A stretch of DNA of 64,000 nucleotides from Blasia pusilla (lineage: Eukaryota). Below, piece after piece: positions 1,380-47,579 of the stretch. The notes under the pieces were generated by a model. The model saw only the letters and a program-made list of their open reading frames with translations. It was not told the DNA's origin and ran no database searches. The position numbers were made by a program, and so were the translations under genes. The stretch covers positions 3,844,001 through 3,908,000 of the forward strand of contig CM114271.1 of assembly GCA_050084515.1 (NCBI GenBank), in the 5' to 3' direction. Every line of letters begins with the position of its first letter. Within the stretch, counting starts at the first letter, position 1.

Positions 1380-2149
1380 TGTCGTGCGCATACACATCGC
1401 TACACAACATACATCGTTGTCATCAAACATACACATAAACACACACGATCCCATGCTAACTCATGTCATCCATACACATAGGCGAGAAGTACCAAAATAT
1501 CTCCAATAAAGTAAGATCCAATCTCTCTCTACATCATCTCACACTATAGCTCTCAAAGGTGTGCACTCTCTCTCATGTCAAACCAAACGCACTCTCCTAA
1601 TGAGAGGCTTGGGTTACACTCACAAGGCAAGGGACCATAGCTCCGCCGTCTCATGTCAAGAGGTTCAACAAAGAGAGAATGAGCTCTCAAGCTTTCTCTC
1701 CTTGAGGTATACCCCTCCCCTCTCCCAAGCTCTCTCCATGGTAACCTATGCTTCCAAGTCACCTCCTTGGCTCTTGACCTGATGTAGGAGGTCAAGGGCC
1801 ACTTACCAAAAATAGAAAGTCAACAATCCCCAATATGGAAACTTACCCGAAATAGTAAGTTTATCTATATGGCTCCAAATGAGCCGAAACGAAGGGGAAA
1901 CCTGCTCTCTTAGGTTTCTCAGGGCCTCAACAGGTCATTCTCAACCTCCTAGGCGTGTCCTCCACTACTCGTGAAGACGCTCTGCTAGATCCCACCGATT
2001 TATCCTAATAGTCGTGATAGTTGTCGTGCGCATACACATCGCTACACAACATACATCGTTGTCATCGAACACACACACAAACACACACGATCCCATGCTA
2101 ACTCATGGCATCCATACACAGAGGCGAGAAGTACCGAAATATCTCCAAT
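1380..2149 (-). repeat. 3' terminal block of element 1: Y2 (1380-1507), X2 (1508-2019), 2-bp spacer, Y1 (2022-2149)
   Basis: 1380-1507 and 2022-2149 are near-identical 128-bp direct repeats. 1508-2019 matches 10571-11082 (both 512 bp). Confidence 0.92.
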
Positions 2150-2335
2150 CGCCCCCCTAGCTGGTGGTTAGGTCCCTCTAACTCCAGATAGCCATCTATC
2201 CCTACCTACCACGACATACATCTCTAGGACGCTAAGAGCATAAAGGCCGGGTGCTCATGTGGCCCCATCGTTAGTCGCCTTCCTGTCATCCATGTCACAG
2301 AAAAAGTTGGAATCAAAACTTACCTAGTATCTCCT

Positions 2336-3724
2336 CTATGTACATCTGGGACACATCCATCGTCCCCGAGGAACCCTAGTGAGAGGTGGCGTCAGACATG
2401 CCATATGCCAACCTCTCAAACATCCATCACAGACTAGCATCGTGGCCGCACCATGGGTAGAACCACACAACATACAACGCAAGCCTGCAGGAACTACTGC
2501 TAAGCTTGGATCTACTATACCATCAATGTTAGGAAGGTGATATGGCGCACAATTACGCATATGGTCCTTCCATACCATACCATCGCGTTCCTCCAGCAAG
2601 AGAACATCGGATGGCAAAACATCACGCACTCTCAGGATAGTGCGCCATGCAATCACATCCAACGTCGTCGATGCCATCTGTTGGAAGTAGACATAATCTC
2701 CCTGATGAAACCTCCGGATAGTTGGTCGATAACCACCATCCCAAATAGTCGCATACCTCAACGCATCTCGATGCTGCGCAATCGCCAAGTTCTCGAACGC
2801 CATGGGCATCACTCTCCAAAACAACTCAGCCCTCTGAGAACATGCTTGCACCCATACATCTGGGTCATCAAGGTCTAGCACCTCACCAGCATCTCGACGA
2901 ATGGCCGCAGGTAAATCTGGCTCTCGGCCATAAAGTAGCAAGTATGGTGAAAAAGACGCTAAGGATGCATGCCTGCTGAATCTGTATCCCATCGCCAACC
3001 ATGGCAACTAGAGGTCCCAATCTCCTAGGTGATCTCTCTGCAAGCCATACTTGCATAAACCCCTCTTCACCGTCTGCACAACTCTCTTCGCTAATCCATC
3101 CGCCTCGGGATGATCTCGCGAAGTCGTGCGGTGGTTGATCAGCGCCTGATCACACAAGGCTTGGAACTCACCGCAAAACTCGGTACCCTAGTCTGTCAAC
3201 ACCTCAGCCGGTGTGCCATAATGACTTAGAACTCTGTCAAGGAAGGCATAAGCTACTCCCTCACTCGCTTTGTCAGGCAATGCAACCAACTCAATCCACT
3301 TCGAGAAGTGCTCGATCATCACCAACACATAACGACTGTGACGCTCCGTCAAAGGCAAAGGTCCTGCAAAATCCAAACTCCATCTATACCCTAAGCCCAT
3401 GATCGATAATGGATGCAATTATGGAGTCAGAGCATTGAATGATGCTCGGACCCGATCACACACCATGCACCTGGCAACAAACTACTGAACGTCAGTCTGC
3501 ATGCCTCGCCACCAATACTGAATCTGGAGCAAGCTGTAGGTCCGCTTCACCCCAAAGTGACCCAACTCCTCGTGGGCATGCTGCACTAGTCGTGCTCTCT
3601 GCAAAGGATGCAGCACTATGAGTACTTTGCCATCCTCCCAAACCCTCAAAACATGTGTCCCCTCCCAACGAAACCGTCTGGCCCGCTGTAGGAACCGATC
3701 CTCTAGCATCCACGGTGCTCGCAA
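2336..3724 (-). pseudogene. Retroviral-type DDE integrase with C-terminal PHD finger (PHD about 2339-2476)
   Basis: HAHEELGHFG...(C..C) zinc motif, WSLDFAGPLP, EVLTD*G.EF, PYLLLYGREP. The protein ends in CMLCGSTHGAATMLVCDGCLRGWHMACLTPPLTRVPRGRWMCPRC, a C4HC3 PHD. In-frame stops are present. Confidence 0.92.
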
Positions 3725-3899
3725 TGCAGCCAGTACGAAGGTACTCCAAGACTACTCCATCATCATGAATATCTCGGCCAACTCTCGTCTCCTCACTGGC
3801 CCCGGGATCCAAGGACTCTCCACTAGACCTCGCCATCAAAGTCTCCACACTCTGGCTCTCCATAGCCAACATGCCTAAATAGGCTCACGTGTGCCATCC

Positions 3900-5140
3900 T
3901 GGTACCGACTCCTCATCACCCTCTCCATGCCATCGAGCTCCAGTCGCATCTCATGACTCGGGCATGGGTTACGACTTAACCCATCTGCATCTTGGTTGAG
4001 CGTCCCACATATATGTACCACCTGAAAATCATACTCCTGCAACAATAGAGCCCATCTCGCAAGCTTCCCTGTAAGCTTGTCGGACTCCATCAACCACTTC
4101 AGTGGTTGATGATCAGTGATGATGGTAAAGGGGTTGCCGAATAAGTAACACTTGAAATGCGCGACAACCCACACCGGAGCGAAGCACTCACTCTCATAGG
4201 AGCTGTACTTTGCCTCTGTAGCGTTGTTTGAGCGGCTAGCGTAAGCCACCACAAATTCTCTACCCTCATCATCATGCTGGGTGAGCACCGCTCCAAGCCC
4301 CAACATGCTCCAATCTGTGTGCAACTGGAAAGGACGCCCCCTGATCGGTCTCCTCAAGATGGGCGCGGACGTCAACTTGTCCTTGAGCAACTGAAAGGCT
4401 CGCTCTTGCTCATCCCCCCAGTGCCACTCGTGATCCACCTTGGTCAGCAAGGTCAGCGGCTTCGCAATCGAACTAAATCCCGTGACGTATCGCCGATAGA
4501 AATTTGCAAACCCATGAATGCGCGAACACGACTCACATCTGTAGGGCGTGGAATGCGTGAGATAGCCTCTACCTTCATCTGCTGAACACCAAAGCCCCCT
4601 GGGTATATCATATGACCTAAGTACTCAATCTGGTCGTAGAAGAACTTGCACTTGCCTGGATGTAGCTTCAGCCTAGGTAATTGCAATCGTCGAAACACCT
4701 CCTCTAGATGTCGCTCATGCTCCTCAACCGTGGCACTAAAGACTACGATGTCATCAATATAACACCTAGCAAAATCCAGACCAGCCAAGATCCTATCCAT
4801 GACCCTCTGAAACTCAGGCGGGGCATTCGTTAACCCAAGTGGTAAGAACCGCCACTAGTACAAACAATCCTTCCCGTGAGGATCGATGCCCCAAAATGCC
4901 GTCTTCTTCCTGTCCTCCAATCTGATAGGCAGTTGATGGTATCCGGCTCGCAAATCCAATGAACAGAAGATCTTTGCGTGACCAATCGCATCAAAGATCT
5001 CCTCAGGGGTGGGCATGGCATACCTATCGGACTATCTGCCGATTGATAGGTCGGTAATCCCCACACATCTGCCTATCCGTCTAGTTGCCATGCACATCCT
5101 TCTTGGCGGGCATGACAGTGGCAGATGCATACTCCCCATA
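3900..5140 (-). pseudogene. Reverse transcriptase and RNase H (Ty3/Gypsy type), frameshifted
   Basis: RMCGDYR, CYIDDIVVFS, KLHPGKC, IEYLGH, LHTDWSMLGLGAVL, VVAYASR and TDHQPLKWL in ORFs 4453-4800 and 3875-4450 and flanking frames. Confidence 0.93.
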
Positions 5141-5719
5141 AGACATCTCCCCTAGTCTTGCTCCGACCAAGTCATGGCTCCTACTCTGAATCAGAGACCT
5201 CTCCATATCACTGTACCTATAGGGTCGTCGGAAGATCGGCATATCACTCGACAAACTCAATGCGGATCCCCAGTCGCTTCAGCGTACCCAAATCCTCCAT
5301 GCTAAACGCAAAGCAGCTCCTATAACTCCTGAGGAACTGATGTATTCGGTGCCGCTCTCCTCCTGTCAACTTAGGGCCCATATCTGGCTCCCAAGTCTCC
5401 ATCGTGACTACGGTAAGACTCTCCGGCGCGGATATCGGTGGTTGCTATGGTGCAACCCCGTCTCGAACAACAACACTCGATCGCTCTCCTGTAGCCAACT
5501 GCAAACTCCAATCTCCTCCACGTGCAGTGCCTGAAACCACGCTCGATGCTGTGGCTATCATCTCCTTGCGTACCTGCAAAACATCCCAAGAAGTTCAAGG
5601 GTGTTTCTCCCGATCTCCCTTGATGCATAGATCTCCTCGGGTCTTGCCCTGAGCCACTGCCTCCACTGTCTCGGTAGGCATGGGGCTCACCAACGCAACC
5701 ACTGTGATCTATCGCGATC

Positions 5720-6697
5720 TCATACGACACTGCTCAGCCACTCCCAAGCTGAGGATCCATGTCAAGCAGTTCAGGTCCATCGCCTGACCCAAGGCATGAC
5801 GTCGTGATGCCTCTAACACTGAGGGTACTGCCGTCACTCCTGTGGGAAATCCCATCGCTTGCTTTCTCTCGTCGGCGTTGGGCTCCACCAACCGCTGAAC
5901 CTGGTCATCCCAAACCAAGCCACGACCAGCCTCCTTGTATGCATAGAAAGTGGGAAAACTCACAAACGTGGGCAAGGCTGCCCGCGACCTACCTACTCTG
6001 TTGACCACAGTCAACGGTGGTCGATCATCGTGCCTCACTGCATGTGATCGACGACCTGGATCCAGAATGGAATCCACTAACAAATGGGAGGGGCGCTCCA
6101 CTCTCGCATACGCCCTCCATAACACCGCATGGGGCACCAAGTTGGTCCACCATAGACGCGGGCGATGGGCTCTAGAACCTACACTTGCCGCATCCAAGAA
6201 CACTGCTGGGCCGATCCAGGCTCGCTCTTGATGAGCACTCGTCACCACCCGTGACTTGGAGTCTCCTAAGATCGGCACATTCTCCAGAATGTAGGCTGGA
6301 GAACGAGACTGGTGCTCCTGCAACTGCCGTAAGACCCTCAACATCTCCCAATACAACTTGGATCGAGTGTCAGCCAACCCATTGCCTTGTCCAGCACTCG
6401 ATTGGCCCTAACATGGCCAACCGGAAATGACCAAATCAATGGTCCCTACCCGCTCTAAGTCCTGCGCCCCCAACAATGAAATATCCCTCGGTAGGGAACT
6501 CTGGTACCCTTGTACTGTGGACGCACATAATATGTCGGGAAAATGTAGGCATAACTCCACCACATGTCATAGTGAGACGCGCCTCGCAACATCATCACTC
6601 TCCACATACAGGTACTGCTGTACTCGCACTCCTGCCTCAAAACAATAGCTAACCCGGTGCTAATCCCTCCAAAGAGATCTAACACTCGAATACCCTC
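5720..6697 (-). pseudogene. C5 cytosine DNA methyltransferase domain embedded in the pol polyprotein of element 1
   Basis: Motif I IRVLDLFGGISTG, motif II YLYVE.D, motif IV DLVISGWPC*GQSSAG, GLADTRSKLY, motif VI YILENVP, motif VIII RAHRPRLWWTN, motif IX/X MGFP...RRHALGQAMD. One frameshift and two stops. Confidence 0.9.
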
Positions 6698-7099
6698 CTC
6701 CGGGGTACACCACACAATGGATGTGGTATCCAAGGGTGTTATCATAGCACTCCCTGCTACCTCGGGTTCCTCAGACCTGTCACGCTCCGGTGCAAACGCC
6801 TCGCTCCACGCGGTCTGCACGTGCTCATCTGCCAATGGTCGAAGCTCCTCAGTCGAGCCCCACAACGGCATCTCTCCTCCACGGAATGATGTAGCTACCA
6901 TAACACTCCTTTCCATAGAAATGTCAGGAATGGGAGTATCCTCTGCATGGACATGTCCCTCAATCAAATCACTAGGCCAAGTCATGGCACTGTTAAATGG
7001 TGCTAAGGTCGCCATCTCTCCTGGCCGTTGCTCGATCACTGCACCTGTGAATCGAACGGATAATGAGCTAAGGGCCCATCACCTGACTGCCATCCTGGT

Positions 7100-9229
7100 T
7101 TGTAGGATGCTGACTCCTCCCAATAATCTAGGGAAAACCCCATCGGATATAACACTGCTCCACCAACCAAGACGTCGTAGGACTCTGCATCAGTCACTAT
7201 CGCCTTGGCACGCACCACGGACTCATCTGTAGGATGTCCCGGGCGAATCCTCACTACGACCTCATGTCAGGTGATATACTGTGTGGTACTCGCTCCACCC
7301 AAGGATGTCTATATCCGAAATGGACAACGCTCCATATCGGCTCTCGTCAAGCCCAATCCTCTGAATGACGCTTTCTCCAACATCAGGGGTTGCGCTCCTG
7401 AATCCAACAAGACGCGCTGCGGACTAAAAGCTCTACCTACAAGACTCACCAACTGGAAGACCTCTCCTTGGTTATCCACCAACACAACACCAGGAGAAGC
7501 CATGACACGCTCTATCGCGGGTCTAGCGGGCATCTGCGCCATCCTAGCAGCCGCAGCCTGCCATGAATCTGACGTGAACGGTCTGAGCATCCGCTCCAAG
7601 GGCAGGTCCATCACCTCCTCTGCAATCACCTCTGAACATGATGCAGGAACTCCAACTCCGCGCCCACATAGCGAAGCGGCCAGCCGAAAAGCCTTGGTGG
7701 GCGTATCCCCCAACGTCATAACATCGGAAGCAGAAAATAAAGGAGTGCGGTAAACAACGGTGGCCGCTCCCAACAACGTGCTCGACACATGCCCCTCCTG
7801 AGCATCAACAATAGGAGTCGTCGCACTCGCTTCTTCCATCGCCCTCCGTGCCTGCACACCAACAACATCACCAACTCTCAAGGAACTTTGATGAGGACCC
7901 ATCGATGGGGTCCTCATCGCTTCGGACAACATGAAAGAGTGAGGAAGCCTAGTATGTTTTCTGGCTTCCCCTCGCTATGGATCCAACTCTACGGCTCCTC
8001 CACGTGTCACAATTGCGGCGGCCTCCATCTAGGCAACCCCGCACATCCAACCAAGATCCTCTAGATCTTTGGCTGCTCCATATGATGTCGATGCCACGGA
8101 TCCGGCATCGGAAAACCTCAATGCCATAGCGGCAATATGCTTATGTAGCTGCTATATCTGAGCAGCCATCCCAGCCTCACGTCCGGCGTCTCCCTCGGCG
8201 CGTCTAGGTGGTGGTACTCTACCTCCTCCACGGGCAGCTCCACCACCCTGTCGGGCAACTCCAGCTCCTTGTCCCCCAACGGGACCACCTGGTGCATGAT
8301 CTCTAGAACCGGACCGGCTACTCACTCTGGTGCCCTCTCTGGCCCTCGGTCCGGACGTAACTCAAGATGTAAACTCAAACATCTGGCGCGTGTATGACCA
8401 TACCTCTGACAATAGTCACACTGATAACCTCCTGGTGCAACACCATCTCCTCCTCCATACTGAGGCACACGTCCATGACCCTGATGAGTGCAATCGCGTT
8501 GATGATGGGCTCCACCATATGACCAACAAGTAATAGTAAGCGGCTGTTGCTAAGCCGCATATGAAGGTGCAGGTCTCTGTGGCACGGCCTCCCGGTATCC
8601 TCCCTGAGCTCGTGGTGCCACAGTCAACCTATCACGGAATCCACGTTGCTGCACAGGTGGTGCAAACAATCGCAATTGCTCTCGCCCACAACCCATGGTG
8701 GTTACGCTCTCCTTCGCCATGTTGCGCTCAATGTTCTCGGCGGTCCTAAAAACATCTTTCAACGTAGCGGAGGTGTTCATAAGAAGCACCCCCTCCCGCA
8801 CCCGTGTCCGCAGGGTCCGGTCCAGCATCGCGTACCATGACTGGATAGCCTGAGCCTGAGTCACCCCCTGAGTGACCTTGATCAACCTTGATCCTTTTAG
8901 TGCTGGGAGTCGCTCCAACTCCTAAACTCTGCTATGAAATTCTGCAACTTAATCGTGCCTACTGCACCTAAAAACCTACGTGGTCCTCCACCCCGATCGT
9001 CCATCTCGTACGCCCAACTGGTAGGACCACTCACAATGTGTGGCGATGTGCTCAAAAACTCCTCTACACCCTCCCCCTCGTCTGACGATGACACAGAAGG
9101 AGGTCGAGGTGGTCCCTCAGGTGGAGACCCTCGAAACCTCACGCCACTTTGCATAAAACCTCTAGAGCTACTCTTGGGTTCACCACCTCGCCTCTCAAAG
9201 TCCCGAATGGATGCGGTGATGACCCTCAT
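7100..9229 (-). pseudogene. Gag (two CCHC zinc knuckles, about 8380-8535) and aspartic protease of element 1
   Basis: ITCWSYGGAHHQRDC and YQCDYCQRYGHTRQMF knuckles (CWSC and HTRAKC in element 3) and protease RVLLDSGAQ...DVLVG. About 420 bp of gag present in element 3 (about 53180-53600) is missing near 8890. Confidence 0.85.
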
Positions 9230-9834
9230 GCCCCTCTCACTTGATCACTCTCAACCTCGAGAGTAATCCCTCAATCACTCATCCCAAACATGCGGCACTC
9301 GATCTACACTCTCCCTCCTCGAGTCTTGTAACGTGCGGCAACAAGCGGCGTGGTCTCATCGACAACCTACCCTCAACTCCGGACATCCCACACAGGTCTA
9401 TGTCCCCTAAACCACATACATAAATGATGGTCTCAGCATTCACACAACCCAATATCACCAAATCAACAACCCAAATCCCAGAATCCCTCACGCGTGCATG
9501 GTAAAGGACCAGACTGGGTAACCTCAATAAATGTTGAATCGCTCCGCAGCAACTGCAAACCTCGACCCCAACTCGGTCGTGAATCCAAACTCCTCAAACC
9601 AGCAAAACACAATCTGCCCCACAATGACGGTGCAGCTTCGTGATAGAGACGGTGCGGTGCGGCCACGAGTGGCACGGCGCGGCAATCGGCGGCACGTTGC
9701 AGCTACGGGCGTCACGTCACGGTCCTCGTCTTCGTGGAGCGGCTACCAACTCAAAACATAATAATGCGGCTAGAAAACTCTGACCCCATAAATCACTTGG
9801 TCACACGTCGTCCAGAATAGTACTCCAGTCGGTC

Positions 9835-9990
9835 GACGACAGCTTGACGGGTAATGGGCCAGCTGACGGGTTGAAGGGCCTAGCGAAGGGTTGACGTCCT
9901 GGGGACGGGTTAACGACCTGGATGACAGGTTGAAATCCTTGCGATGGGTTGACTTCGTGGATGACGGGTTAATAGCCTGGCCGATGGCTA
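9835..9990. repeat. Degenerate short tandem repeats (GACGGGTTGA-like) in the 5' UTR of element 1
   Basis: About 7 copies of gacgggtt/gacaggtt/gatgggtt. An analogous cgtcaccatcaa array sits at 52410-52505 in element 3. Confidence 0.6.
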
Positions 9991-10570
9991 TGGCGACGGC
10001 GCTGCCAACGGCAGCTGCTGCTTTAGGATTTTGATTTTTACTCTAAAATTGGCAGTTTACAAAATTGGCCATAAAGTTTTGCTCGCAGCTCTAAATTGTG
10101 CACCATCTGTTGCACAACGTGCACAGCTTTAAGATCTAGAATGGCGTTAAAAATTTTTTGAATCGGAAAATCCTATAAAAACTGATGGGGACTGTCGTAA
10201 ACCCCAACGTCTCTTTCTTCTACCCAACATTCGGCAGTGCTTCCGAGTTGATTTCTCCCAACAAAAATGTAAAACTTGTGAAAAGAAAAATTAGAAAGCT
10301 ACATGGTGCTCCCAAGAGCACCATGTAGCTTTCTAATTCATTTGAGTGTGTGGGTAATCCGCCCACACACTCAAATTCTACCAACATTTGGGGAACGCTT
10401 CCGCGCGTCACTCTCCCGTACGAAAAAATGGTAAAGGAAAACAGCAAACTGAATGACTCTTGCTCTCGTGAGCACTCCCATGAGTCATGAAGCAGGGAAC
10501 ATGGTCCCTAACCTGCAAACACAGCGAAACTCTAGCAAGCTCCGCATTGTAGCTCTCATTCTCTCTTTGT

Positions 10571-11082
10571 AAAGTAAGATCGAATCTCTCTCTACACCAT
10601 CTCACACCATAGCTCTCAAAGGTGTGCACTCTCTCTCATGTCAAACCAAACGCACTGTCCTAATGAGAGGCTTGGGTTACACTCACAAGGCAAGGGACCA
10701 TAGCTCCGCCGCCTCATGCCAAGAGGTTCAACAAAGAGAGAATGAGCTCTCAAGCTTTCTCTCCTTGAGGTATACCCCTCCCCTCTCCCAAGCTCTCTCC
10801 ATGGTAACCTATGCTTCCAAGTCACCTCCTTGGCTCTTGACATGATGTAGGAGGTCAAGGGCCACTTACCAAAAATAGAAAGTCAACAATCCCCTATATG
10901 GAAACTTACCCGAAATAGTAAGTTTATCTATATGGCTCCAAATGAGCCGAAACGAAGGGGAAACCTGCTCTCTCAGGTTTCCCAGGGCCTCAATAGGTCA
11001 TTCTAGACCTCTTGGGCATGTCCTACACTACTTGTGAAGACGCTTTGCTAGATCCCACCGATCTATCCTAACAGTCGTGACA
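10571..11082 (-). repeat. 5' terminal repeat X1 of element 1 (not followed by Y)
   Basis: Matches 1508-2019, 55200-55711 and (inverted) 51326-51841. Confidence 0.92.
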
Positions 11083-23672: not shown

Positions 23673-23902
23673 TGCTTTTGAAGCATGTTATCTTTTGTGT
23701 TAACTCATTCCTTACGGTTCTTGTTTTTCCTTGTATTAAGTAGGATCAAGAATGTCGATGCGATACATACAAGGTTGCGTATGGACAAAGTGTGTGTCCG
23801 TGGACTTACGTCCGTCCTATAGAAGGAATTTTTCATATGATCCTTAGGTCCCCCTTCTTTCTCATCCCCTTCAGTTGCCTTTGTGATTGCCACTTTCTCG
23901 TT

Positions 23903-25819
23903 TGTCATGACCATACGGATTATGTCGTAGAGTATGGTGTGCTGGTAGAGGCCATTCCTTATGTAGGACCGTAGTGGCTTGGTAGAGATGCGGTTCCATA
24001 CATAGGGTTGGGGGTTACTCACTTGGGGGTGACTTTCCTAGTAGGGCCCGCTCTTAGGTTGGAGGATATAAGGTGGCTTGCCCTCAAAGAACAGTTAGTT
24101 CTTTGAGTTGAGCCTGTTGCGTTGGGAGTTAGCCTTGGTAGTGAGTAGAGCTCTTGGCTATGGTGTTTCCGCAAGACCCGACCTAGATTCTCCCCATCGT
24201 GGAGTGGGTTTGGCTCGATTGTATGTGATTAAGCGTGTTTTATGACATGGAGGTCTTTCACGGATTTCACTCAAAGAACTCGAGTAGATCGATGGTAGCT
24301 TCGATTGTAGATCAGTATGATGTGGTTAGGGCTGATTGTGTACTCAGCCGTGGATTTTCGTGGCTTGTGGCCTATGTTGGAGGTGTGAATCTGGTGCGCG
24401 GTTGGTAGGGAAAGAAGCGCCTTGCTGAGAGCTTTCCAACGCGCTTTAGATCGCGGATTTTGTCAAGGGAGTTGGAAGTTATCAAGGATTGAAGATTCTG
24501 GTTCGTGTTCGACGGTTTTCGATGTGCTTGGAGAGCTTGGAGTCGGAAGCGTGTGTTGAAGTTCATCCAGATCAGGTGAGAGGTTCCTGTTGCTACTCAT
24601 ATTGTGATCTCCTGTGAATCTATCTGCTCGAGTGTGTGGAGCGTTGCGGATTTCTGCGTGCATGAAACTTGGTGGAAGCGCTGTCGGATTTGCGATTCTG
24701 GAGGTGTATGGACAGCAAGTTTGTTTGATTTTTAGCTCGGAGTACAGAGCTGGGTTGTAGCTGATTTTTTGTGGAGAGATAGCTATGGTGGTCAATTGAA
24801 TTCTGATTGAAACAGATTTGATTTCGGTCACGTATTTGTGAAGTAATTTTTGATCGAAATTTTTCAGACTAGCTCAAGGTCTGTGGCTATGGTGGACAGC
24901 GGATCAGAGGGGCTTGTGTGGATCTACTGGTAACGCAGCCCGTATGTTGGTGTGTGATCGGTATTCTAGGGGTTGGCACATGATGTGTTTGACTCCACGT
25001 TTGGATGTTGTTCCTATTGGAAGGTGGGTTTGTCCTCGATGTACTTAGGAGAGGTAGATGACTTGATCTTTGCATGATATGGATTACGGATGTGCGACTA
25101 ACGATGGGGCAACCTAGCACCCGGCCTAAGTTCTTCCGATTCGGGCACCCAAGAAGGTGTATAGCATGTAGTAGATGTATAGGGCTACAGGAGTTAGAGG
25201 GACCTAACCGCTTGATTAGAAGGGGCGAGTTGTGGTACACTTGCGTTTGTGGATACTCTCGTCTATGTTATGTATGTATGGACAATGCGTATGGTATGTC
25301 GATGTATGTTGTATGCGATGTGAATTCGACGACATTTGTCATGACCATACGGATTATGTCGTAGAGTATGGTGTGTGGTAGTAGAGGCCATTCCTTATGT
25401 AGGACCGTAGTGGCTTGGTAGAGATGCGGTTCCATACATAGGGTTGGGGTTACTCACTTGGGGGTGACTTTCCTAGTAGGGCCCGCTCTTAGGTTGGAGG
25501 ATATAAGGTGGCTTGCCCTCAAAAACGATTAGTTGAGAACACATATCTTTGAGTTGAGCTGTTGCGTTGGGAGTTAGCCTTGGTAGTGAGTAGAGCTCTT
25601 GGCTATGGTGTTTCCCAAGCTTCGACCTAGATTCTCCCATCGTGGAGTGGGTTTGGCTCGATTGTATGTGATTTAAACGTGTTTTATGACAAAGAGGTCT
25701 TTCACTGATTTCAGTTGTGGTACACTTGCGTTTGTGGATACTCTCGTCTATGTTATGTATGTATGTGCGTATGGTATGTCAGCGATGTATGTTGTATGAT
25801 GATGTGGATTCGCACGACA
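23903..25819 (+). mobile_element. Non-autonomous deletion derivative of a second subfamily of the PHD-Gypsy lineage, with split direct repeats
   Basis: X1 23903-24269, Y1 25229-25334, spacer TT, X2 25337-25713, Y2 25714-25819. TGTCA...CGACA termini and flanks CGTT/CATT (4-bp TSD with one transition). Retains PHD-coding sequence. Confidence 0.9.
24914..25048 (+). pseudogene. PHD finger remnant (end of pol)
   Basis: Translates LCGSTGNAARMLVCDRYSRGWHMMCLTPRLDVVPIGRWVCPRCT*, clearly homologous to the C-terminus of element 1. Confidence 0.9.
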
Positions 25820-26037
25820 CATTTCTTCCTCCCTCTTATTTTCAACCGGCCTTCCTTTCATAATTACTAGCAAGTTGCTTGTGCTATCCATAAGAGTACA
25901 CATTATTCCTTGACTTAGCTCTCTTCCATTCTAATTTAACTCCTTAAAATGACATGTGTTATCATGAAAGAAGTCCTTAAAGGATAAATGTGGACCTCAA
26001 AAGGAGGGATTCTACATACCCATCCTCTCTTAATGGT

Positions 26038-30686: not shown

Positions 30687-31894
30687 TTATGCCAGGGCTG
30701 TCAAGGAAGGCTCCAATACCCAGCAGAGCAGCACGTAGCCGAACTCCAAATTTGCAGTGCAGGTGCTTGTGTTGGTGGAAAAATCGCGGACGATGAACTC
30801 CAAACGAGTTCGGCATTTCCCTTGAGTTTGGAACTCCCGGATGAAGCAAATAAGTTCTCCGGCTCCGACACAAGATGAATTTTGCACATCGTCCCCATTA
30901 TGTCTTACCAGCTTGACGGTGAGAGGCTTAGGCATCTTCTTTTGTTCAAGGCGGATTTTCTGGCCCGATTCGTGTAACGTACAAGCCCTTCCTTCTTCTG
31001 TCATCAGCACTAGCTGACTGCGGTGCTCTAAGATCCGGACGTCCCAGCCATAACTCGCCAAGAGCAGTGTCGCCCAAGAATCCTTCTCGACGTCATACTT
31101 GAACAATCGAGGACAGCACCGGTCATCATCATCTGCAACCCAATAAAGTGCCCCTTTCCAAGGAATTCCGGGCTTCCGAGAGAAGCAACTGCTGGGAAGT
31201 CTGGGAGAATTGGCGCCTCTGCTCCAAGAACGTTCTCGAGAGTCATACACAAGTGTGGTGCGCTGAGAAGGGTCGTACGTCTCGGCAATGATCAGCTTGT
31301 AGTTCCCGGTGTCCTTGCAAACCATCAGACCAACTAGCAAATGCTCCATGGGACGATGATAATCCGCAGGACGATTGCAATCATTCGGTGGCAAGGCCAG
31401 ATATGGCTCGTCGCTGTCAGGCATGGCAGATGCAGCACTCTCCAGCGCTTCGTCACCGGATTACACACAACAAATTGCGAACATGTATAAGTCGATAGAC
31501 AGAGCAGTCCTCCACCTGACGCGGCCATCTCCCAGGATCCCATAGAGGGGTCCAACCTCAGAAAAGACAGAGACAGCTGCGACCAAGTGTTCCTCCGCGC
31601 GTCGTACGCCGTGAAATACCGATCGTCCGCAGTACCAGCGGCTGGCGTGAAAAAGGTGAAGTGGAACGGAACGCACTTAGCCGGGCAATCTTCCGCAGGT
31701 GTGAAATTTGGCGACAAGATCAGCTCATTCCATCTCTTGCATACAGTGCGACACTTCACTACACTGGAGAGTGGTAGCTTCGTTAACACCCGTTCCATCA
31801 GATCCTCGGGCAACGACGACCACAAATCCGAATTCAGCACCCGTCTGCTGCCCTCCACCACGCCCCCTCGCCCCCTCGGTCTCAGAAAATACAT
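30687..31894 (-). pseudogene. Plant F-box (kelch/FBA-like) protein gene with one frameshift near 31425
   Basis: F-box LWSSLPEDLMERVLTKLP...CRTVCKRWNELI, then ASGGGLLCL and VVCNPVTKRWRVL. It continues in another frame with YKLIIA, TLVYDSRERSWS, GALYW and YDVEKDSW. ATG at 31894. Confidence 0.85.
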
Positions 31895-33346
31895 AGTGCA
31901 GACAATGAGCGAGATCGAGACAGCGAAGGAGAAAGAGCAAAGAACACGCCACCGTCGAGATCCGGAGAAAGTGAGCAGGACGTCGAGATGCGTAGTAGTA
32001 GTAGTATCCGATGCAAATCCCCCGACGACCACCAGGTAAATTCCTTCGCGTTGATATTGCAGCAATTGGTTCAAATTTCTCCTCACGATTCTAAACCCCT
32101 AGATGAACAAGACCAGATGTGCAGATGAAGGAAGTTAAAACCCGAAACAAAATCTCCCGACGACCACCAGGTAGATTCCTTCGCGGCGAGATCGCAGCAA
32201 TTGACTCAATACTGTCCTCGCGATCGTAGACCCCTAGATAAGTACGAGATACGCGGTTGAAGATGGTGACGACTCTCTCCTACGCCCGCTTACGACACTT
32301 AGCCCCGTTCGCGCAGAAGTAAGCAGAAACGTCCTCTGCCTATCGGTAAGATGATACCTGAAACAGACGCCGCCTGAGTGCGATTACATACTTCTCATTG
32401 GGGCTTCCGAAGCGCGTCAAATTTGACCTTCGAGCTTACATTGACGTTGGCATTTATCTTGCGGGGCATTCCATGGATGCCGCTGTAGAGGTAGGGTTTA
32501 CAAACAAACCTGTCGAAGTTTAGGGTAAACACACGACAACAAGGCTAGGGTCGCCGTTTAGTTTAGGGTTAATGCCCCACGAATAGCACGACATTCGGGA
32601 AGAGTGCTTCCAACTCATTAGGGTTCGACAAATCCATGGACGGTAGGGTTTTCGTTGCTCTCCATGTTAGGGCTCGCGGTGTGGACGAGCCTTTGCACTC
32701 GGAAGATCGCAACTCTAGACTTAGGGTTTAACAGGTATGGGTTCGATCGGAACAAACGGTTCATAGTGGGACATTTGCGGTTCGGAAATCTTCAGAGCTC
32801 TGAGGTTCATCATGATCGCTGTCTGTAAACGAAGACAGCCAGCGGTGCTGCTTCGAGTTAGGGTTGTACACGCTGACACACAACAACGACGTGAGTGCAG
32901 AATCCCACCTCTTCCATCATTTCTTCGATGATTGTCGGTCGAAATGACCATAAGAGCATAGGATGTTGAAACAGGATCCACGCAGACATGGCTGCGAAAG
33001 AAATGTCTCGCCTATTCCGCCTAGGGTTTTAGAACCTGCACCATACGTGGAACGCAAGTACGACCCTTGCGGTTGCGATAGCTCTTAGGTGAGCTTCTGC
33101 CTCAGTACGAGTCCGGCAGAGTGTGCAGGAACTCTCTGCTCACTCTCTAGCAGAAAGCGAACTCCTGTACCACGATCCAACAGTTCTAGATGGAGATGAT
33201 GTTGTGCCCTTCCAACCCTCGAGCATCTCTCACGTGAAAAGCATGAATCGTGTCTCCTGTCACGAAGCTCACGAGAACTAAATGAACCGGCTAACTGCGG
33301 TTAATTCTCGGGGCTGGCGATGATTCTGTTCTGGACGTGATTTAGA

Positions 33347-33575: not shown

Positions 33576-34651
33576 TTTGGGGTGGACGGCGAACGAGATG
33601 TGTTACTACTGTACAGTAGTGGTGTGCAGCTGATGGACGGCGCTGTGAGGTTCCAACTACGGCGGCTCCAAGCACCGCCGTAGGGCTTCACGGCGATTGC
33701 CGTATGAGTCTAGGAGCCGTGGTGATAAACGGGACATGGGGGCAGTGTCGCTGTCCTAAATGGCACGGAGCTCTTGTACGGAGAAGATTCGAAGTGGTGA
33801 TGGTGGTGGGGGGTTGCACTTGAATCCGCTCTAGATCCACTTAGAAGCCGTTGTGATAGGATTACTCGAACTTAGGTCTGCAACTTGCGAGCGTAATGGA
33901 GTGCTATGTCTGATGTTGGTTGGGGCATACGAAGATGCTCCATTATGTATGGGTCTAATCGAGGATGGGGGATAGTGGAGATCCATGGCCTGGTTTTTGG
34001 GGTTTTATTAATTTAATGTCCCCATAGTATATTGAAATAATACTAACACGGGGTGCATGGTGAACGAAAATGGAGTGGATACAAACACTAACACGGCATG
34101 GAATACTAATATGAAAATTTTTAAGAGTGGATAAGTATTAACGCGGAGCAAAATGAGTCCAAATGTCTTTATTTTGGCTCACATCGGACGGTTGAGAAAT
34201 GAAGTCTTCAAATCGACTTAACGCCCAAGTGGCGGCAGAAGAGAATATGGCCTAGAAGTAGGCTATTTTTTTCTTCTCTATCTTCTAGGGATTCCCCTTT
34301 TTATTTGTGCCCAAGGGGTTGGGTGTAGTCTTTGTCGCGGGCATACACGAGTCACATTGTGAGTCACATTCGCACAACAAAAATTATCGATCTTTCCAAC
34401 ATATGGATAGATCATACACATAAATAATATACTCATACGCCAAGAAAAAATTGAAATAAGAAGGATTGATATAACCAACTCCACTCCCAAGTCTAGATAC
34501 ACATATCAAGTCACATCCATCCTCTGTTATGAGGGAATCCATATTGTAGCCCTTAAGCTCCTACCAAATCTTAAACACGTGAGTATTCCCAAGTCTCAAC
34601 ATGAGAATGTGAAAGTCATCTCCACTAACTTTAGTAAGAGTTAGGATAAGA

Positions 34652-36602
34652 GGACCTACATCTTGCTCCAGATACAGTATTGGTGGCAATGTATGCAGAC
34701 TGACGTTCAACTGTTTCTTGCTAGGTGCATGGTTTGTGATCGGGTCCGGGCATCGTTCAATGCTCCGACTCCACAGTTGCATCCACTTTCGATCATGGGT
34801 TTAGGTTATAGATGGAGTTTGTATTTTGCAAGACTTTTACTCGACACGGTGGTGGAGCTTCTCGTGGAGGAGGTAGAGTCCCACCACCTAGACGCGTCAA
34901 GGGAGACGTCGAGCGTGAGGCTGGGATGGTTGCTCAGATACAGCAACTATAGGAGCAGATTGTTGCTATGGCATTGAGGTTACTCGATGCCGGATCCGTG
35001 GCATCGACATCATAAGGAGCAGCCAGAGATATGGAGGATCCTGGTTGGGTGTGCGGGGTTTCCCAGATGGAGGCCGCCGTAGTTGTGACACGTGGAGCGG
35101 CCGCAGAGTTGGATCCACAGCGAGGGGAAGCCAGAAAACATACCAGGCTTCCTCAATCTTTCACGTTGTCTAAGGCGATGAGGACCCCATCGATGGGTCC
35201 TTATGAGAGTTCCTGGAGAGTTGGTGATGTTGTTGGTGTGCAGGCATGGAGGGTGATGGGAGAAGCAAGTGCGACGACTCCTATTGCTGATGCTCAAGAG
35301 GGGCATGTGTCCAGCACCTTGTTGGAGGCGGCCACCGTTGTGTACCGCGCTCCTTTATTTTCTGTTTCTGATGTTATAACTTTGGGAGGTACGTCCGCCT
35401 CGGTTTTTCGGCTGGCCGCTACGATATGTGAGCGTGGAGTTGGAGTTCCTGCATCACATTCAAAGGTGATTGCAGAGGAGGTGATGGACCTGCCCTTGGA
35501 GCTGATGCTTGGGCCGTCCACGTTAGATTCAAGGCAGGCTGCGGGTGCTAGGATGGCGGAGATGCCCGCTAGACCCACGATAGAGTGTGTCATGGCTTCT
35601 CCTGGTGTTGTTTTTTTGGATAACCGGAGAGAGGTCTTCCAGTTGGTGAGTCCATCCGGTAGAGCTTTTAGTCCGCAGCGTATCTTGTTGGATTCAGGAG
35701 CGCAACCCCTGATGTTGGGGAAATTGTCATTTAGAGGAGTGGATTTGACGAGAGCCAATGTAGAGGGTTGTCCATTCCGGATATAGACATCCTTGGGTGG
35801 AGTGAGTACCACATAGTATATCACCCGACAAGAGGTCGTGGTGAGGATTCGCTCGGGACATCCTACAGATGAGTCCGTGGTGCGAGCCCAGGCAATAGTG
35901 ACTGATGTAGAGTCCTACGATGTCTTGGTTGGTGGAGTAGTGTTATACCCAATGGGGTTTTCCTTGGATTACTGGGAGGAGTCAACGTCCTACAGACCAT
36001 GATGGCAGTCAAGTGATGGGCGCCTTAGCTCATTACTCGTTCGATTCATAGGTGCAGTGATCGAGCGACGGCCAGCGGAGATGGCGACCTTAGCGGCATT
36101 TAGTAGTGCCATCACTTGGCCTAGTGATTTGATTGAGGGACATGTCCATGCAGAGGATACTCCCATTCTTAACATTTCTATGGAGAGGAAGTGTCATGGT
36201 AGCCACATCAATCCGTGGAGGAGAGGTGCTGCTTTGGGGCTCGATTGAGGAGCTTCGACGCTTAGCCACTGTAAGCATGTGCAGACTGCGTGGAGCAAGA
36301 CGTTTGCACTAGAGTGTGATAGGTCAGAGGAACCCCAAGTAGTCAGGAGTGCTGCTATGACCCCTTTGGACACCACCCCGATTGTGTGGTGTATCCAAGA
36401 GGAGAGTATTCGGGTGTTGGATCTCTTTGGAGGGATCAGCAGCGGGTTAGCCGCTGTTTTATACGATGGAGTGCAAATGCAATAACACCTGTATGTGGAG
36501 ATTGATGATGTTGCGAGGCGCGCTTCACTTCACCATGTGGTGTAGTTACACATCCGGTTTCCCGACTTATTATCTGCGTCCGCCATTCAGGGTTACCAGA
36601 GC
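34652..36602 (+). mobile_element. Element 2: internal fragment of the DNMT-Gypsy family (integrase piece fused to gag end, protease and MTase N-terminus)
   Basis: 34652-34835 matches the integrase region of element 1 (LLQIQYWW...LGYRWSL). 34848-36602 matches gag end, RILLDSGAQ and IRVLDLFGGISSG. Confidence 0.88.
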
Positions 36603-38135: not shown

Positions 38136-38909
38136 AGGAACGACGTCGTCACTTCTGACAGGGTAGGACGGACGGACGGAGCGGCAGGACTCCTCTTCCG
38201 GCCCAAAGCAGGTGCTAGAAAGAGCGTGGAATATGTCAAAGCAAAGGGCAGACCTCGACTTGGATTTGGAAATCTAGGAAGGCTCTCTGGTGCGGCGAGA
38301 CGGGAGGTGGAAGAGGTGAGACGAAGGAAGGAGTCGTCGTTGGCTTTCCGAGGAAGGGATGGCGGGGGAATGAAGGGTTCGGACGCATGGCGGGATCAGA
38401 AGATGGCTTTGCAGAGGGAGATATAGAGTTCGCGAGGGACTTGGGATACGGAGGGAAGTGGTGAAGAAGTTCAACAGGGTTGAATTGATCGATTGTGTCC
38501 GATAGGACTGTACCTAGCTGTGGCCTTTGTGTTCATGTGCATCTCAAGGAGAGGTTCCCGTGGATTGGAATTCTTCGAAGCTGCGGTTTTGTGTGACTTG
38601 ACAGATTGACCATAAGGATAACCCCATTGATCTCAGGACAAGCGTGACGCTGGTCGACGAGACGGGATATATGCGTAGGGTGTTGATCAATTCTGGCAGG
38701 ATCGGGTAGTTTCGGCGAGAGTAGAGAGATCTGGGCACAGGGCTGTGCAGGGTTGAGGGAGGAGGAGCAGTGGTTGCGCGGGGAGGAAGATACGGGAAGA
38801 AAGCGGTTAAATTTCTGGAAGAGCTCTTTGGACAAACACTCTAGGAAGGGCTTCCCAGTGTATAATTTGATTCGCAGGAATCACTAGGGAAAGGTGGCCA
38901 ACCGCGCAA

Positions 38910-39305
38910 ATGTCCGGAGGACTTATTCCATACCCTACCCAGCACCAGGTACAACTCAACGGTTCACAATGTCAACTCGTCTGCGTTTGGTGCGGAACCT
39001 TGCTTGTGTACCCTTATGGTTCCAATCACGTTCGTTGCGCCATTTGCAGCTTCGTGACAACCGTTCCGCCTCCGGTGGCTCACATCAATTGTGGGGGTTG
39101 TGGAGTAACCCTCATGTACCCAGCAGGAGCACACGCAGTGAAGTGTGCCTCTTGTCAATTCATTACATGTCTAACACCGGTTACTGCAGGGCAATCTCAA
39201 CCTCAAACGCAAACTGTAATTGTTGAGAATCCGATGACTATGGATGACAACGGGCAACTGGTTAGTAGTGTAGCCGTTGGAATTACATCCACCAAACGTA
39301 CGTAA
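38910..39305 (+). CDS. LSD1/LOL-family zinc-finger protein with two zf-LSD1 domains
   Basis: QLVCVWCGTLLVYPYGSNHVRCAICSFVT and HINCGGCGVTLMYPAGAHAVKCASCQFIT, plus the family C-terminal motif QTQTVIVENPMTMDDNGQLVSSVAVGIT. Confidence 0.92.
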   Translation: MSGGLIPYPTQHQVQLNGSQCQLVCVWCGTLLVYPYGSNHVRCAICSFVTTVPPPVAHINCGGCGVTLMYPAGAHAVKCASCQFITCLTPVTAGQSQPQTQTVIVENPMTMDDNGQLVSSVAVGITSTKRT

Positions 39306-44757: not shown

Positions 44758-47012
44758 TTACACATCCACAACAACTTCACTTGGGTCTAAGGCATTTAAA
44801 TTTACGCGAACTTCTGGTGGAATTTCTATCTCAAGAATATATCTCTCGGGATTGGCATACACATACCTAAAGTGTGCTGAATTCTTCCAAAGAACTACAG
44901 ATTCAACCAACAAACCTTCATAATCATCTATTTTCCCCTCCAAGGCAATCCTAAGAACAACATCCAAATGCTTTGTCATTAACCTATTCCTACTTTTAGT
45001 CTTGATCACATTTTGCACAGAGAAAGCTCTCTCACAAATAGCAGTACTAACACACTGTACCCTAGCAATATTCGCTAAAATGAGCAAGTTAGAGAACTTA
45101 CATTGCAAGGACGGGCTCCAACTTACCATAGCCCACAAGTCCTTGAAGTTCCGATCTTTCCACTCCGTCGTGGCCATGAGCTTAAATGATTGAAACTCTT
45201 GTTTCACAGCTCCTACACTCATTAAAGAAGGTTGCAAGTGACCTTTGAAGGGTAAGTCTGTCCCAAAATGTGCAGAGAGGTCATCCAATTCCTTACAACC
45301 CCAACTATTTAGTCCCACTTGCCTTGAAGGCATGTGCAGAGGATTCATTATCCTCATAGCACTAATCAAGTTGTTATCCCTAAACCGATCTCGTAAAGCT
45401 ACACAAACACTCTCAGAAAAATTCTTCTGAAACAACAAGGCAGCCTCTAGATCCTTTCCTGTCCGATTCCTCAACATTTCTATGTTGTGGAACTTTCTGC
45501 CCCTAATCTCAGATTGTAAACGTTTCAAGTAACCCCCTGAAGGACCAAAGTCTGGTAGAATGTGATAACCACTTTCTTCAGAGAAAGTGGAGGCATTCAG
45601 ATCAGGGTTCTCCATTACAAAATTCATTGTTATGGAAGCTATTTCAGAAGTCACTATACTACCTATGGTACTAACATCTACAAACTTATATTGGAACACC
45701 TTACTCAAGTTAGCAAGAAGAAACAAAATATCTGCCAAAAAGTACAGTTGATAGATCATCTGAAATGATCTGAGCTTGTTATACAAATTTGCAGCATAAC
45801 CATCATCTTCCGAAGGCGAGATATCTCTGAAATATGCAAGGATAGATTCCAGTGAGTCACATAAAGTAGTAACAGCCTGCCAACGCGACAACCAGCGAAT
45901 CTTGTGGTACCTCTTCATCACTTTATGAGAATCGTTCAACTTTTCTTGCAAAGTTGCAAGACCACACTTCCTCTTGGACGACCTTCTAAAATATCCAGCT
46001 ACTGCATTCAAAATTGAATCTACTTCTATAGATATTTCCTTACACCCTACACCTTTTGTTGTTAAAAAGCGGCGAGATTAAATCTGTCGCCCACACAATG
46101 CACAGACAACATAAAAGGATTTATCTTATGTTTCAGCTGAGATGCTACTCCGTTTTGGCTTCCTACCATAGTAGAAGCTCCATCAGATCCAAAGGTAACC
46201 AGTTTTGATCCCTCAAGTCCCGAATCCTTTATCAACTCCAACAAATTGTTAGTGATTGCGTTTGAACATTCCTCTGGACATTGGAGCAATCCTATAAAAC
46301 AACTCTCTACTTGCCCCTCATCTAAGTAAGTTGCAAATACAACAAGATGTCCAGTGGTGGATATATCGTGGACTCGTCAATCATTATCCCAAAGAAAGGA
46401 GATTGTTGCACTTTAGAAAGGTTCCTCCTGAGAAGAACCTGGCTAATATAAAAACACATAGCAGCACAACTTTTTTCATCTTGGTACAAGTCGGGATATA
46501 GGTGCATTCACAGATATCAATAACTTACACAGATTTGAGAACTTTGAAAATGGCAGGGCTTCCTTTGCAACGAAATATGCACATTTGAACAGAGTCAAAA
46601 GTGCAATATCACAAGTCCGATTTGTGGTGGCTATAGCCTTGGCCATGGATATGTTCCCCACATTCGTAGCCCATGCAAGCTTCATGTGCTCATTCGACTT
46701 ACCATGATCTGTGAAGGCCGAAACCTTACAGTTAATGGCACCATCCCTGGCAAAGGAGCTTTTCCCCTTACCCTGTCTACAGACTTTGCAAAAAATCCGA
46801 CCAGATTCTACATGGAATTCTATCCAATCGAACAAAGTATACCAAACATCCTTCCAAGCCAATCTATTTTTCTCACTCTGACTTGTCGGATGAGTATTTG
46901 ATTTGTCCCCTTCTCTCCCATCCGATGATCTTGACCTACTGTTCTCCTCTGCAAGGTCTTGACTAACTTCCTTGTGTAGCATCTCATTCATTGTTCGCTG
47001 TCTCTTAGCCAT
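44758..47012 (-). pseudogene. hAT-superfamily transposase (ZNF862/DUF4371-like with hAT C-terminal dimerisation domain), frameshifted
   Basis: N-terminal W...FDWI...IFCKVC...H..S..H zinc finger, FFGIMIDEST, FGSDGASTMVG, SVHCV, IRWLS and VSTAICERAFSVQNVIKTKSRNRL across four ORF pieces. Confidence 0.9.
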
Positions 47013-47579
47013 GTAGAGGCTCAGAGAATGCAGAACAAAGTTCACTAATGTAATCCAAACCCGCGAGCCCTACTGCCCTACCCAAGGCTCCACCTGGGAA
47101 AAACTCTAAGCGAAGCTGTGCAAGCTGCACAACATAAACCTGTCACTTAGTAGGTGCTAATGAAACAATGGAGCTCAAGAAAATGTGGATCTGAAAAGTA
47201 CTCAAGACTCGGCAAAAGATACAATGCCAATGCAATGTGAGCCAGAGCTGTCGATACTCAAGCTGGGGGGAAGATGGGGGATGGCGGGAGGGCAGGGAGG
47301 GGCTTGGAAAGAAGCAGACAGGCAGCAGCGGCGCCGGATCCCTGTCCCTCCCGTTGTAGTTCCCTTCTCTCGAACCCAATCAAAGTCTGCAGTTCAAACA
47401 AGGCACATAGCGAGCAGCAACGAGAGAGCACCAAAAAGCACCTACCTCACAGCGACGCGCAGCAACAAACAAGATAGCATGCGGGTGGAATGGCAAGATA
47501 AAGAAAATTCGAAAGCTCAAGCGAGCTTTGCTTGGATTCAGGAGGTATTGACAGGGATACAGTGGCGGACCTCCGCTCT

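Follow-up and report, generated by a model that had tools for sequence, protein, structure and literature searches.

Decayed Ty3/Gypsy retrotransposon copies with a DNMT3-like methyltransferase domain in Blasia pusilla, a probable bryophyte branch of the KnitGypsy-Dnmt3 kind

Retrotransposons that carry a DNA methyltransferase (DNMT) have so far been described in print from dinoflagellates and one charophyte alga. KnitGypsy-Dnmt3 of the charophyte Klebsormidium nitens, as presented in the main text of PMC5890265, combines a Gypsy-type pol, an intronless and non-permuted Dnmt3-like domain and split direct repeats arranged as A-coding-B-A-B; its domains are placed there as a divergent Dnmt3-related clade, and its copies are methylated and silent in their host. 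The same text describes SymbioDIRS-Dnmt3 of Symbiodinium, which also has a Dnmt3-type domain in a retrotransposon pol and the A-coding-B-A-B arrangement, with a position of the domain that varies among subfamilies and with de novo CG methylation demonstrated in yeast (PMC5890265). We analysed a stretch of 64,000 nucleotides of Blasia pusilla (GCA_050084515.1, contig CM114271.1, positions 3,844,001 to 3,908,000; hereafter the window), which contains several decayed copies of a Ty3/Gypsy element with a DNMT domain in its polyprotein. Taken as a whole, our results make it likely that these copies belong to a bryophyte branch of the KnitGypsy-Dnmt3 kind, which arose by one capture of the domain and one move of it within pol. 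The host is here a land plant of liverwort affinity and not a charophyte alga, and the element differs from SymbioDIRS-Dnmt3, which is of the DIRS class and has a tyrosine recombinase, by its rve integrase and its target-site duplications.

Copy 1 is complete in length, and its polyprotein has the domain order gag(CCHC)-PR-DNMT-RT-RH-IN-PHD (PR stands for protease, RT for reverse transcriptase, RH for RNase H and IN for integrase). With a PR-RT-RH-IN pol, an H2C2 and DDE integrase, and the DNMT placed between PR and RT, it is assigned to Ty3/Gypsy. Its features are the following.

1380-11082, minus: copy 1, full-length but decayed element, 9703 bp (self-BLAST and end sequences)
11083-11086 (right copy) and 1376-1379 (left copy): 4-bp target-site duplication, AAGG on the plus strand (end sequences)
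10571-11082, minus: repeat A1, 512 bp, 5' end of the element (95.9% identity to A2 over 511 bp)
8379-8528, minus: gag zinc-knuckle region, two CCHC-like knuckles, the first degenerate (translation; matches the CCHC region of Marchantia relatives; no Pfam match)
7312-7974, minus: protease region, LLDSGAQ at 7410-7390 (D-S-G motif and colinearity with relatives; no Pfam match)
5712-6685, minus: DNMT3-like cytosine C5 methyltransferase (C5-MTase) domain, pseudogene (PF00145, 42 bits; DNMT3A the best solved match)
4606-4995, minus: reverse transcriptase, RVT_1 (Pfam E 1.1e-24)
4031-4420, minus: RNase H, RT_RNaseH and RT_RNaseH_2 (Pfam E 2.7e-34)
3107-3601, minus: integrase, H2C2 zinc domain at 3601-3443 (E 4.9e-16) and DDE core rve at 3388-3107 (E 1.2e-12)
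2342-2476, minus: PHD finger at the C-terminus of the integrase open reading frame (ORF) (PF00628, E 4e-11)
2022-2149, minus: repeat B1, 128 bp (94.7% identity to B2 over 131 bp)
1508-2019, minus: repeat A2 (self-comparison and junction reading)
1380-1507, minus: repeat B2, 3' end of the element (self-comparison and end reading)

The Pfam map of copy 1 was made on three frames with stops read as X, and its domain matches are scattered over all three, which indicates many frame breaks in the element.

The earlier note on this DNA had described C5-MTase motifs in canonical, non-permuted order, and a three-frame translation of 7200-5600 does show them at the place it had given, copy 1 being read on the minus strand.

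6685-6659, minus: motif I, VLDLFGG
6608-6591, minus: motif II-like, YVESDD
6422-6405, minus: motif IV, GWPC, a stop, then G
6290-6276, minus: motif VI, ILENV
6173-6141, minus: motif VIII, RAHRPRLWWTN
5885-5847, minus: motif IX region, EPNADE...MGF
5792-5775, minus: motif X, LGQAMD

The bare ORF at 5709-6407 (minus) gives a borderline PF00145 score of 21.8 bits for a cutoff of 22, whereas 5709-6626 (minus), with its two internal stops read as X, reaches 42 bits (E 1e-10), and the whole-element frame 37.8 bits, with a match at 6485-6249. The score of 42 bits excludes a chance match for the copy 1 domain, and the PF00145 search that the note had proposed thus comes out positive. The domain is interrupted by a frame break near 6637, between motifs I and II, and by stops at 6569-6567, 6410-6408 and 5711-5709, the second of which directly follows the catalytic Cys codon. 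Pfam detects no PWWP and no ADD domain in any frame of the element, in which a PHD finger sits instead after the integrase.

Further members of the family are present in the window.

34648-36601, plus: copy 2, rearranged fragment, PR region followed by DNMT motifs I-II, motif I at 36414-36440 (86.7% identity to copy 1 over 1760 bp)
51326-57506, plus: copy 3, 5' part with A1, gag, PR and the whole DNMT domain at 56273-57261, motif I at 56273-56299 and motif X at 57184-57201 (89-90% identity to copy 1)
55088-55711, minus: solo A-B unit inside copy 3, in opposite orientation, with TTGG/TTGG flanks (self-BLAST)
24914-25209, plus: fourth, more diverged fragment, PHD end of a related element (67% nucleotide identity to 2166-2470; PHD E 3.6e-8 with stops as X)

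The domain had been claimed to occupy the same place in three copies. It does lie downstream of PR in each of them, copy 2 keeping its N-terminal part up to a cut at 36601, after motif II, but RT follows it in copy 1 only, as copy 3 is cut off before RT and ends at 57506. The claimed colinearity of DNMT with a Gypsy pol, between PR and RT, similarly holds for copy 1. Each copy has a break that the earlier note left unmentioned; copy 3 has its own frame break and a stop at motif IV. An open frame able to give the enzyme is absent from every copy of the window, copy 1 being broken and copies 2 and 3 truncated or broken. The DNMT copies of the window are pseudogenes, hence incapable of methylating their own cDNA, and the window's copies are as such ordinary dead repeats. 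The motif-IV stop is common to copies 1 and 3 (56557-56559 in the latter), at the same place after the Cys codon, and the other breaks are private. The two copies either inherited this stop from a master copy that had already lost function or acquired it separately, through a change that recurs at a methylated site.

The association of DNMT with pol would be an artefact if a host DNMT3 gene happened to lie beside a transposon or if the assembly were chimeric, for which nothing more can be invoked than the general risk of repeat-rich assemblies. The same PR-DNMT junction is found in three copies and on both strands of the window, and also within single ORFs of relatives from several genomes, and the element has no introns and neither of the PWWP and ADD domains. 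An artefact is thus hardly credible.

The kind of METHYLTRANSFERASE in the element is, as judged by sequence and by a structural model, DNMT3-like and not DRM. Compared with solved proteins, the broken domain of the window matches the DNMT3A catalytic domain first (E 3.5e-7), DRM2 coming at about 0.1. A family profile, built from seven uninterrupted relatives, matches DNMT3A with an E-value of 9.6e-19, colinearly over profile positions 4-325, and DNMT3B and DNMT3C with E-values of about 5e-17. Its match to DRM enzymes (E 1e-8 to 1e-10, about 1e-8 for DRM2) is restricted to profile positions 3-133, aligned with DRM residues 226-351, a partial C-terminal match which is expected because DRM enzymes are permuted. 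The colinearity with DNMT3A, free of the circularly permuted motif order, leads us to reject a DRM identity, and the earlier statement that the domain is not a captured DRM is borne out. The likeness to bacterial methyltransferases, also put forward, does exist (E about 5e-6 for M.HhaI and M.HaeIII) but is far below that to DNMT3, which is found by sequence and by fold. The AlphaFold model of the uninterrupted DNMT domain of a Calypogeia relative (pLDDT 85.5, pTM 0.87) was compared with the PDB by Foldseek, and among the matches listed all 33 are DNMT3A, 3B or 3C, with a best E-value of 1.8e-18, a target-normalised TM score of up to 0.82 and an identity of 22-24%. The best matches in sequence and in fold are thus the animal DNMT3A, 3B and 3C; the element domain is colinear with them from motif I to motif X and differs from them, besides the low identity, by a longer VIII-IX stretch, the lack of PWWP and ADD, and its location in a retrotransposon polyprotein.

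A word-indexed protein search retrieved 25 relatives, namely 14 Marchantia polymorpha gene models, one protein of Calypogeia fissa (the best, with 66% identity), two of Sphagnum and eight others, three of which are close and five distant (34-38%). Uninterrupted predicted proteins covering the DNMT domain, annotated as hypothetical proteins, occur in Marchantia, Calypogeia and Sphagnum, and the bryophyte relatives have unbroken gag-PR-DNMT(-RT-RH) frames with GWPCQG, ENV and RAHRxRLWWTN. The distant relatives have another layout, RT-RH-DNMT-IN-PHD. An exhaustive profile search over 1.84 billion representative proteins gave 10418 matches at E<=1e-3 and 2104 at E<=1e-10, with 513 clusters at E<=1e-30 and the best 150 matches all below 1e-76. 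With local seeds, 174 proteins (the 25 relatives and 149 new ones) were typed for architecture: DNMT lies after RT/RH or directly before the integrase in 103, after gag/PR or directly before RT in 24, and stands in DNMT-only fragments in 47; a PHD finger follows the integrase in 60. Where hosts of the RT-RH-DNMT-IN layout are named, they are green algae, namely Cymbomonas tetramitiformis and Monoraphidium neglectum. One RT-RH-IN-PHD polyprotein of the family (P0350, 1974 aa) carries the NCBI label of a 'Minisyncoccia bacterium' metagenome-assembled genome and probably comes from a mis-binned eukaryotic contig.

The two layouts were compared by alignment and by phylogeny. Their DNMT domains align from motif I to motif X, VIII-IX stretch included, with 38-43% identity. 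Between the Marchantia protein P0007 and P0022, one of the algal and metagenome RT-RH-DNMT-IN-PHD elements, RT-RH is 41% identical over 476 aa and DNMT 41% over 321 aa, the blocks being in swapped order, and the IN-PHD end of the window element is 45% identical to that of P0022. These elements thus resemble ours over the full length of DNMT, RT-RH and IN-PHD, and differ from it by a DNMT placed after RNase H and not before RT, and by a mostly Glu-Cys motif IV. A FastTree phylogeny was computed from 168 DNMT rows; the 23 with the PR-DNMT-RT layout, that of the window among them, all fall on one side of a single branch (SH-like support 98), together with six rows of undetermined layout and none of the other layout. 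An IQ-TREE quick search on 54 of these rows (18 with the PR-DNMT-RT layout and a minimum of 280 aa, the 8 closest to them from the other layout, and 28 random ones with a minimum of 300 aa, 114 of the 168 being left out) also separates the layouts by one branch (SH-aLRT 99); both trees are unrooted and were made without outgroup. By sequence comparison, the PR-DNMT-RT layout is one clade, of bryophytes, most other members being RT-RH-DNMT-IN, and the window family probably represents the branch that land plants, here bryophytes, contribute to a very large group of Gypsy elements with a DNMT in the green lineage.

Between the two forms, DNMT has diverged about as much as RT-RH, from which we infer that a DNMT3-type domain was captured once, long ago, and later moved once within pol; this is also the simplest reading of both trees. 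The bryophyte elements could alternatively have taken up a host DNMT3 independently of the algal elements, the likeness being then a convergence; the different place of DNMT in pol would fit, and recurrent capture is documented for other retrotransposon classes in the main text of PMC5890265. Such a separate capture is nevertheless improbable, since the alignment extends over the whole domain, DNMT and RT-RH have diverged to the same degree (41% identity each), the IN-PHD end is common to both forms and a single change of architecture accounts for the tree.

The boundaries of copy 1 were then read from its ends. Two equal long terminal repeats (LTRs) are absent; the element is bounded by split direct repeats, with A only at its 5' end and B-A-B at its 3' end, so that its layout in element orientation is A1 (11082-10571), coding, B1 (2149-2022), 2 nt, A2 (2019-1508) and B2 (1507-1380), with TG..CA termini. 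A 4-bp target duplication is seen in both insertions with two visible flanks. It reads AAGG at copy 1 and TTGG at the solo A-B unit, whose empty site is the single TTGG at 7404-7407 in copy 1. These duplications fit linear DNA integrated by a DDE integrase, which would insert a molecule that begins where A starts and stops where B ends, and thereby generate the 4-bp duplication. A DIRS-like element was considered and rejected, as the rve integrase and the 4-bp duplications are not a tyrosine recombinase design, and the likeness to DIRS is confined to the repeat layout. The canonical LTR reverse-transcription scheme was also rejected as a source of A-coding-B-A-B, no version that we tried yielding the observed ends. 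The internal B1-A2 segment holds the information of both ends, so that a transcript running from inside A1 to inside B2 would carry everything needed. This is the logic proposed for DIRS-like elements.

Some observations accompany these repeats. At the internal B1-A2 junction (window 2019-2022) the two element ends (..CA and TG/TA..) stand head to tail with two bases between them, in a manner resembling an LTR-LTR circle junction, and B1 is immediately preceded, on its 5' side, by a purine-rich run, AGGGGGGCG. In host DNA contigs, joints skipping about 648 bp (1505 to 2154) correspond to forms without A2-B1, and joints skipping about 9064 bp to solo A-B units. Around the fourth fragment, a direct repeat (23901-24269 versus 25335-25713, 92%) encloses the diverged PHD end, and a B-like piece lies beside it at 25756-25823; the region 23901-25823 is the 3' end of an older relative in the same element group.

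The nature of the host and the expression of the family were also addressed. The ERdj3B-type DnaJ protein encoded in the window is, over its full length, 77% identical to that of Marchantia paleacea, 66% to that of Calypogeia fissa and 54-69% to the other proteins listed, mostly of seed plants, with a fern and a lycophyte (best 120 of 5136). The 77% identity to Marchantia paleacea points to a land plant of liverwort affinity, different from the species named in that list, in agreement with the land-plant host assumed in the earlier note. The host DNA contigs contain 235,445 pieces of the family, which is therefore very abundant there. In host RNA-seq, reads fall on the element in all three runs (3473, 3412 and 3692), of which 12, 17 and 11 are at least 99% alike to copy 1, and 2967, 2927 and 3188 are 90-95% alike. 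First mates on the plus strand outnumber those on the minus strand by about 10-fold or more, with a depth of 17-54 across the DNMT bins; in bin 5934-6264, for instance, plus and minus first-mate depths are 35.7 versus 2.0, 24.7 versus 1.2 and 53.5 versus 5.3. With usual stranded libraries, plus-strand first mates correspond to RNA of the minus strand, the strand on which the element reads in sense. Of 81 reads over the break of frame that separates motifs I and II, 69 have a length other than that of copy 1, so that the transcripts stem from related copies free of that break. These results show that related copies in the host are transcribed in sense, and that copy 1 is not the source.

Conservation was assessed on the 168-row alignment. 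The catalytic Cys is found in all 164 rows with a residue at that position, the Glu of ENV in 167/167, and the two Arg of motif VIII in 164/166 and 164/165. The residue that precedes the catalytic Cys is Pro in 65 of 165 rows and another residue in 10, leaving 90 with Glu. This Glu-Cys form (GWECQD) is mostly seen in the RT-RH-DNMT-IN layout, for example in P0021 and P0023, the Cys itself being never lost, and the bryophyte layout is mostly Pro-Cys, with GWPCQG in 15 of 22 rows. Between copies 1 and 3, the DNMT block has a ratio of nonsynonymous to synonymous substitution (Ka/Ks) of 0.49 over 301 codons (p 0.0018 by Fisher's test); in the protease block it is 0.68 between copies 1 and 2. The differences between copies 1 and 3 comprise 112 transitions versus 38, as expected for methylated repeats. 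For the KnitGypsy-Dnmt3 copies of K. nitens, Ka/Ks values below 0.2 are given in the main text of PMC5890265.

Several points weigh against our reading. As all the window copies are broken, activity is shown by none of them. Active C5-MTases do not usually have a Glu ahead of the catalytic Cys, as 90 of 165 rows do. The Ka/Ks of the DNMT block, though significant, is just moderately below 1, and the protease block of copies 1 and 3 stands at 1.05. The RNA reads are for 85-86% only 90-95% like copy 1 and thus derive from other copies, and the sense-strand call presumes the usual stranded library chemistry. The trees, having no outgroup, carry neither a nesting of the bryophyte form within the other one nor a position inside the DNMT3 clade. 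Kinship to KnitGypsy-Dnmt3 rests on shared design, compared by description and not by alignment, and no Klebsormidium-named sequence occurs among the 25 and 88 matches of the two protein searches. Finally, the sole published yeast test of the KnitGypsy-Dnmt3 domain found no methylation, and is called inconclusive in the main text of PMC5890265.

The broken copies, two of them with a common motif-IV stop, and the negative yeast test would also suit a passenger domain, of no use to the element and decaying neutrally. We regard this as very improbable, even more so than a separate capture, because the catalytic Cys, the ENV and the RxR residues are kept in nearly all 168 rows, which represent hundreds of diverged clusters, and unbroken predicted proteins with the domain exist in three bryophyte genera; the DNMT Ka/Ks of copies 1 and 3 and the lower values reported for K. 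nitens go in the same direction. Rather less improbable, while still unlikely, is a domain kept for another target: it could act in trans on host or rival-transposon DNA, imitate the CG methylation of gene bodies, or be a module that binds DNA or SAM (S-adenosylmethionine) without catalysis. The frequent Glu before the catalytic Cys would be in line with such a role, which the authors of PMC5890265 leave open in their main text, but the bryophyte form is mostly Pro-Cys, and the predicted fold and all SAM and catalytic motifs match those of active DNMT3 enzymes.

Under the reading that we prefer, namely a bryophyte branch of DNMT-carrying Gypsy elements, the DNMT domain of intact members, made within Pol, would methylate cytosine C5 in double-stranded DNA using SAM. 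Its likeliest substrate might be the element's own new cDNA or a fresh insertion, a suggestion that we make tentatively and that was proposed by de Mendoza et al. in the main text of PMC5890265. The PHD finger fused to the integrase could have a complementary function. The solved PHD fingers closest to it are those of CHD4, PHF12, KDM5A/B (PHD1), ATXR5, KAT6A/DPF3, PHF21A and AIRE. These fingers mostly bind histone H3 tails with unmethylated K4. By this kinship to H3K4me0-type fingers, the finger could perhaps tether integration, and possibly methylation, to chromatin with unmethylated H3K4, a tether that is a guess, held as tentatively as the substrate. Such a tether would have parallels in the chromodomain of chromoviruses and in the DNMT3 ADD domain. 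In chromoviruses, the chromodomain targets integration. Like these elements, Gypsy-7a_cRei of Chlamydomonas carries a chromatin-reader domain on a Gypsy pol, as stated in passages of PMC9940879, which place its PHD between RH and IN; in the window element the PHD comes after the integrase, and both chromoviruses and Gypsy-7a_cRei are devoid of a methyltransferase.

The remainder of the window contains the following ordinary plant genes of the host.

16141-17190, plus: single-exon ERdj3B-type DnaJ gene (DnaJ and DnaJ_C)
31337-32098, minus: F-box/kelch gene (wider region 30690-32098)
38871-39302, plus: LSD1-type zinc-finger gene
61222-62859, minus: cytochrome P450 gene

At 44761-47069 (minus), there are ORFs of 439 and 197 aa, one with a weak match to hAT dimerisation (19.9 bits, below cutoff) and the other with a zf-C17orf113 zinc finger (E 2.8e-12); they probably represent a domesticated or decaying hAT-like transposase. 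Adjoining the 5' end of copy 1, the ORFs at 11038-12400 (plus) have a weak RVT_1 match (22.7 bits, below cutoff) and look, by eye, like a fragment of a non-LTR retrotransposon, similar to a long interspersed nuclear element.

What we describe is, by its design, a known kind, KnitGypsy-Dnmt3, in a new host group and with an apparently new domain order, and not a new category. The novelty expected by the earlier note is to be reduced accordingly: a DNMT3 domain together with split repeats is already the KnitGypsy-Dnmt3 design (PMC5890265, main text), the PHD finger after the integrase recurs in about a third of the relatives typed (60/174), and unbroken proteins with the domain are already in the public annotation of Marchantia, Calypogeia and Sphagnum. 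In our literature search, which did not extend to supplements and subscription journals, no description of a DNMT-carrying retrotransposon was found for Marchantia, liverworts, mosses or bryophytes; later papers mention 'streptophytes (Gypsy-DNMT3)' loosely, citing PMC5890265, in the main text of which the word PHD is absent. Our analysis adds land-plant hosts (liverworts and mosses), the PR-DNMT-RT clade and the size of the family, as well as the PHD finger, TG..CA ends flanked by a 4-bp duplication, and transcription in the host.

The Gypsy-DNMT3 kind thus extends into land plants, as part of a very large and old green-lineage family with two pol layouts. It becomes accessible in tractable hosts, Marchantia above all, for the question why a transposon carries an enzyme that hosts use for transposon silencing. 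A warning for annotation also follows, in that DNMT3-like matches in bryophyte genomes may be transposon genes and not host methylation machinery. One further possibility, slightly more tentative than the cDNA substrate or the chromatin tether, is that of a living bryophyte retrotransposon lineage, descended from green-algal elements through a single DNMT move, in which the DNMT3-type enzyme and the H3K4me0-type PHD finger would mark new insertions. If this were true, the split repeats, combined with a DDE integrase, would suggest that reverse transcription takes a route unlike that of ordinary LTR elements, and land plants would owe de novo cytosine methylation not to the host DNMT3, DRM and CMT alone but also to a mobile element as a second source.

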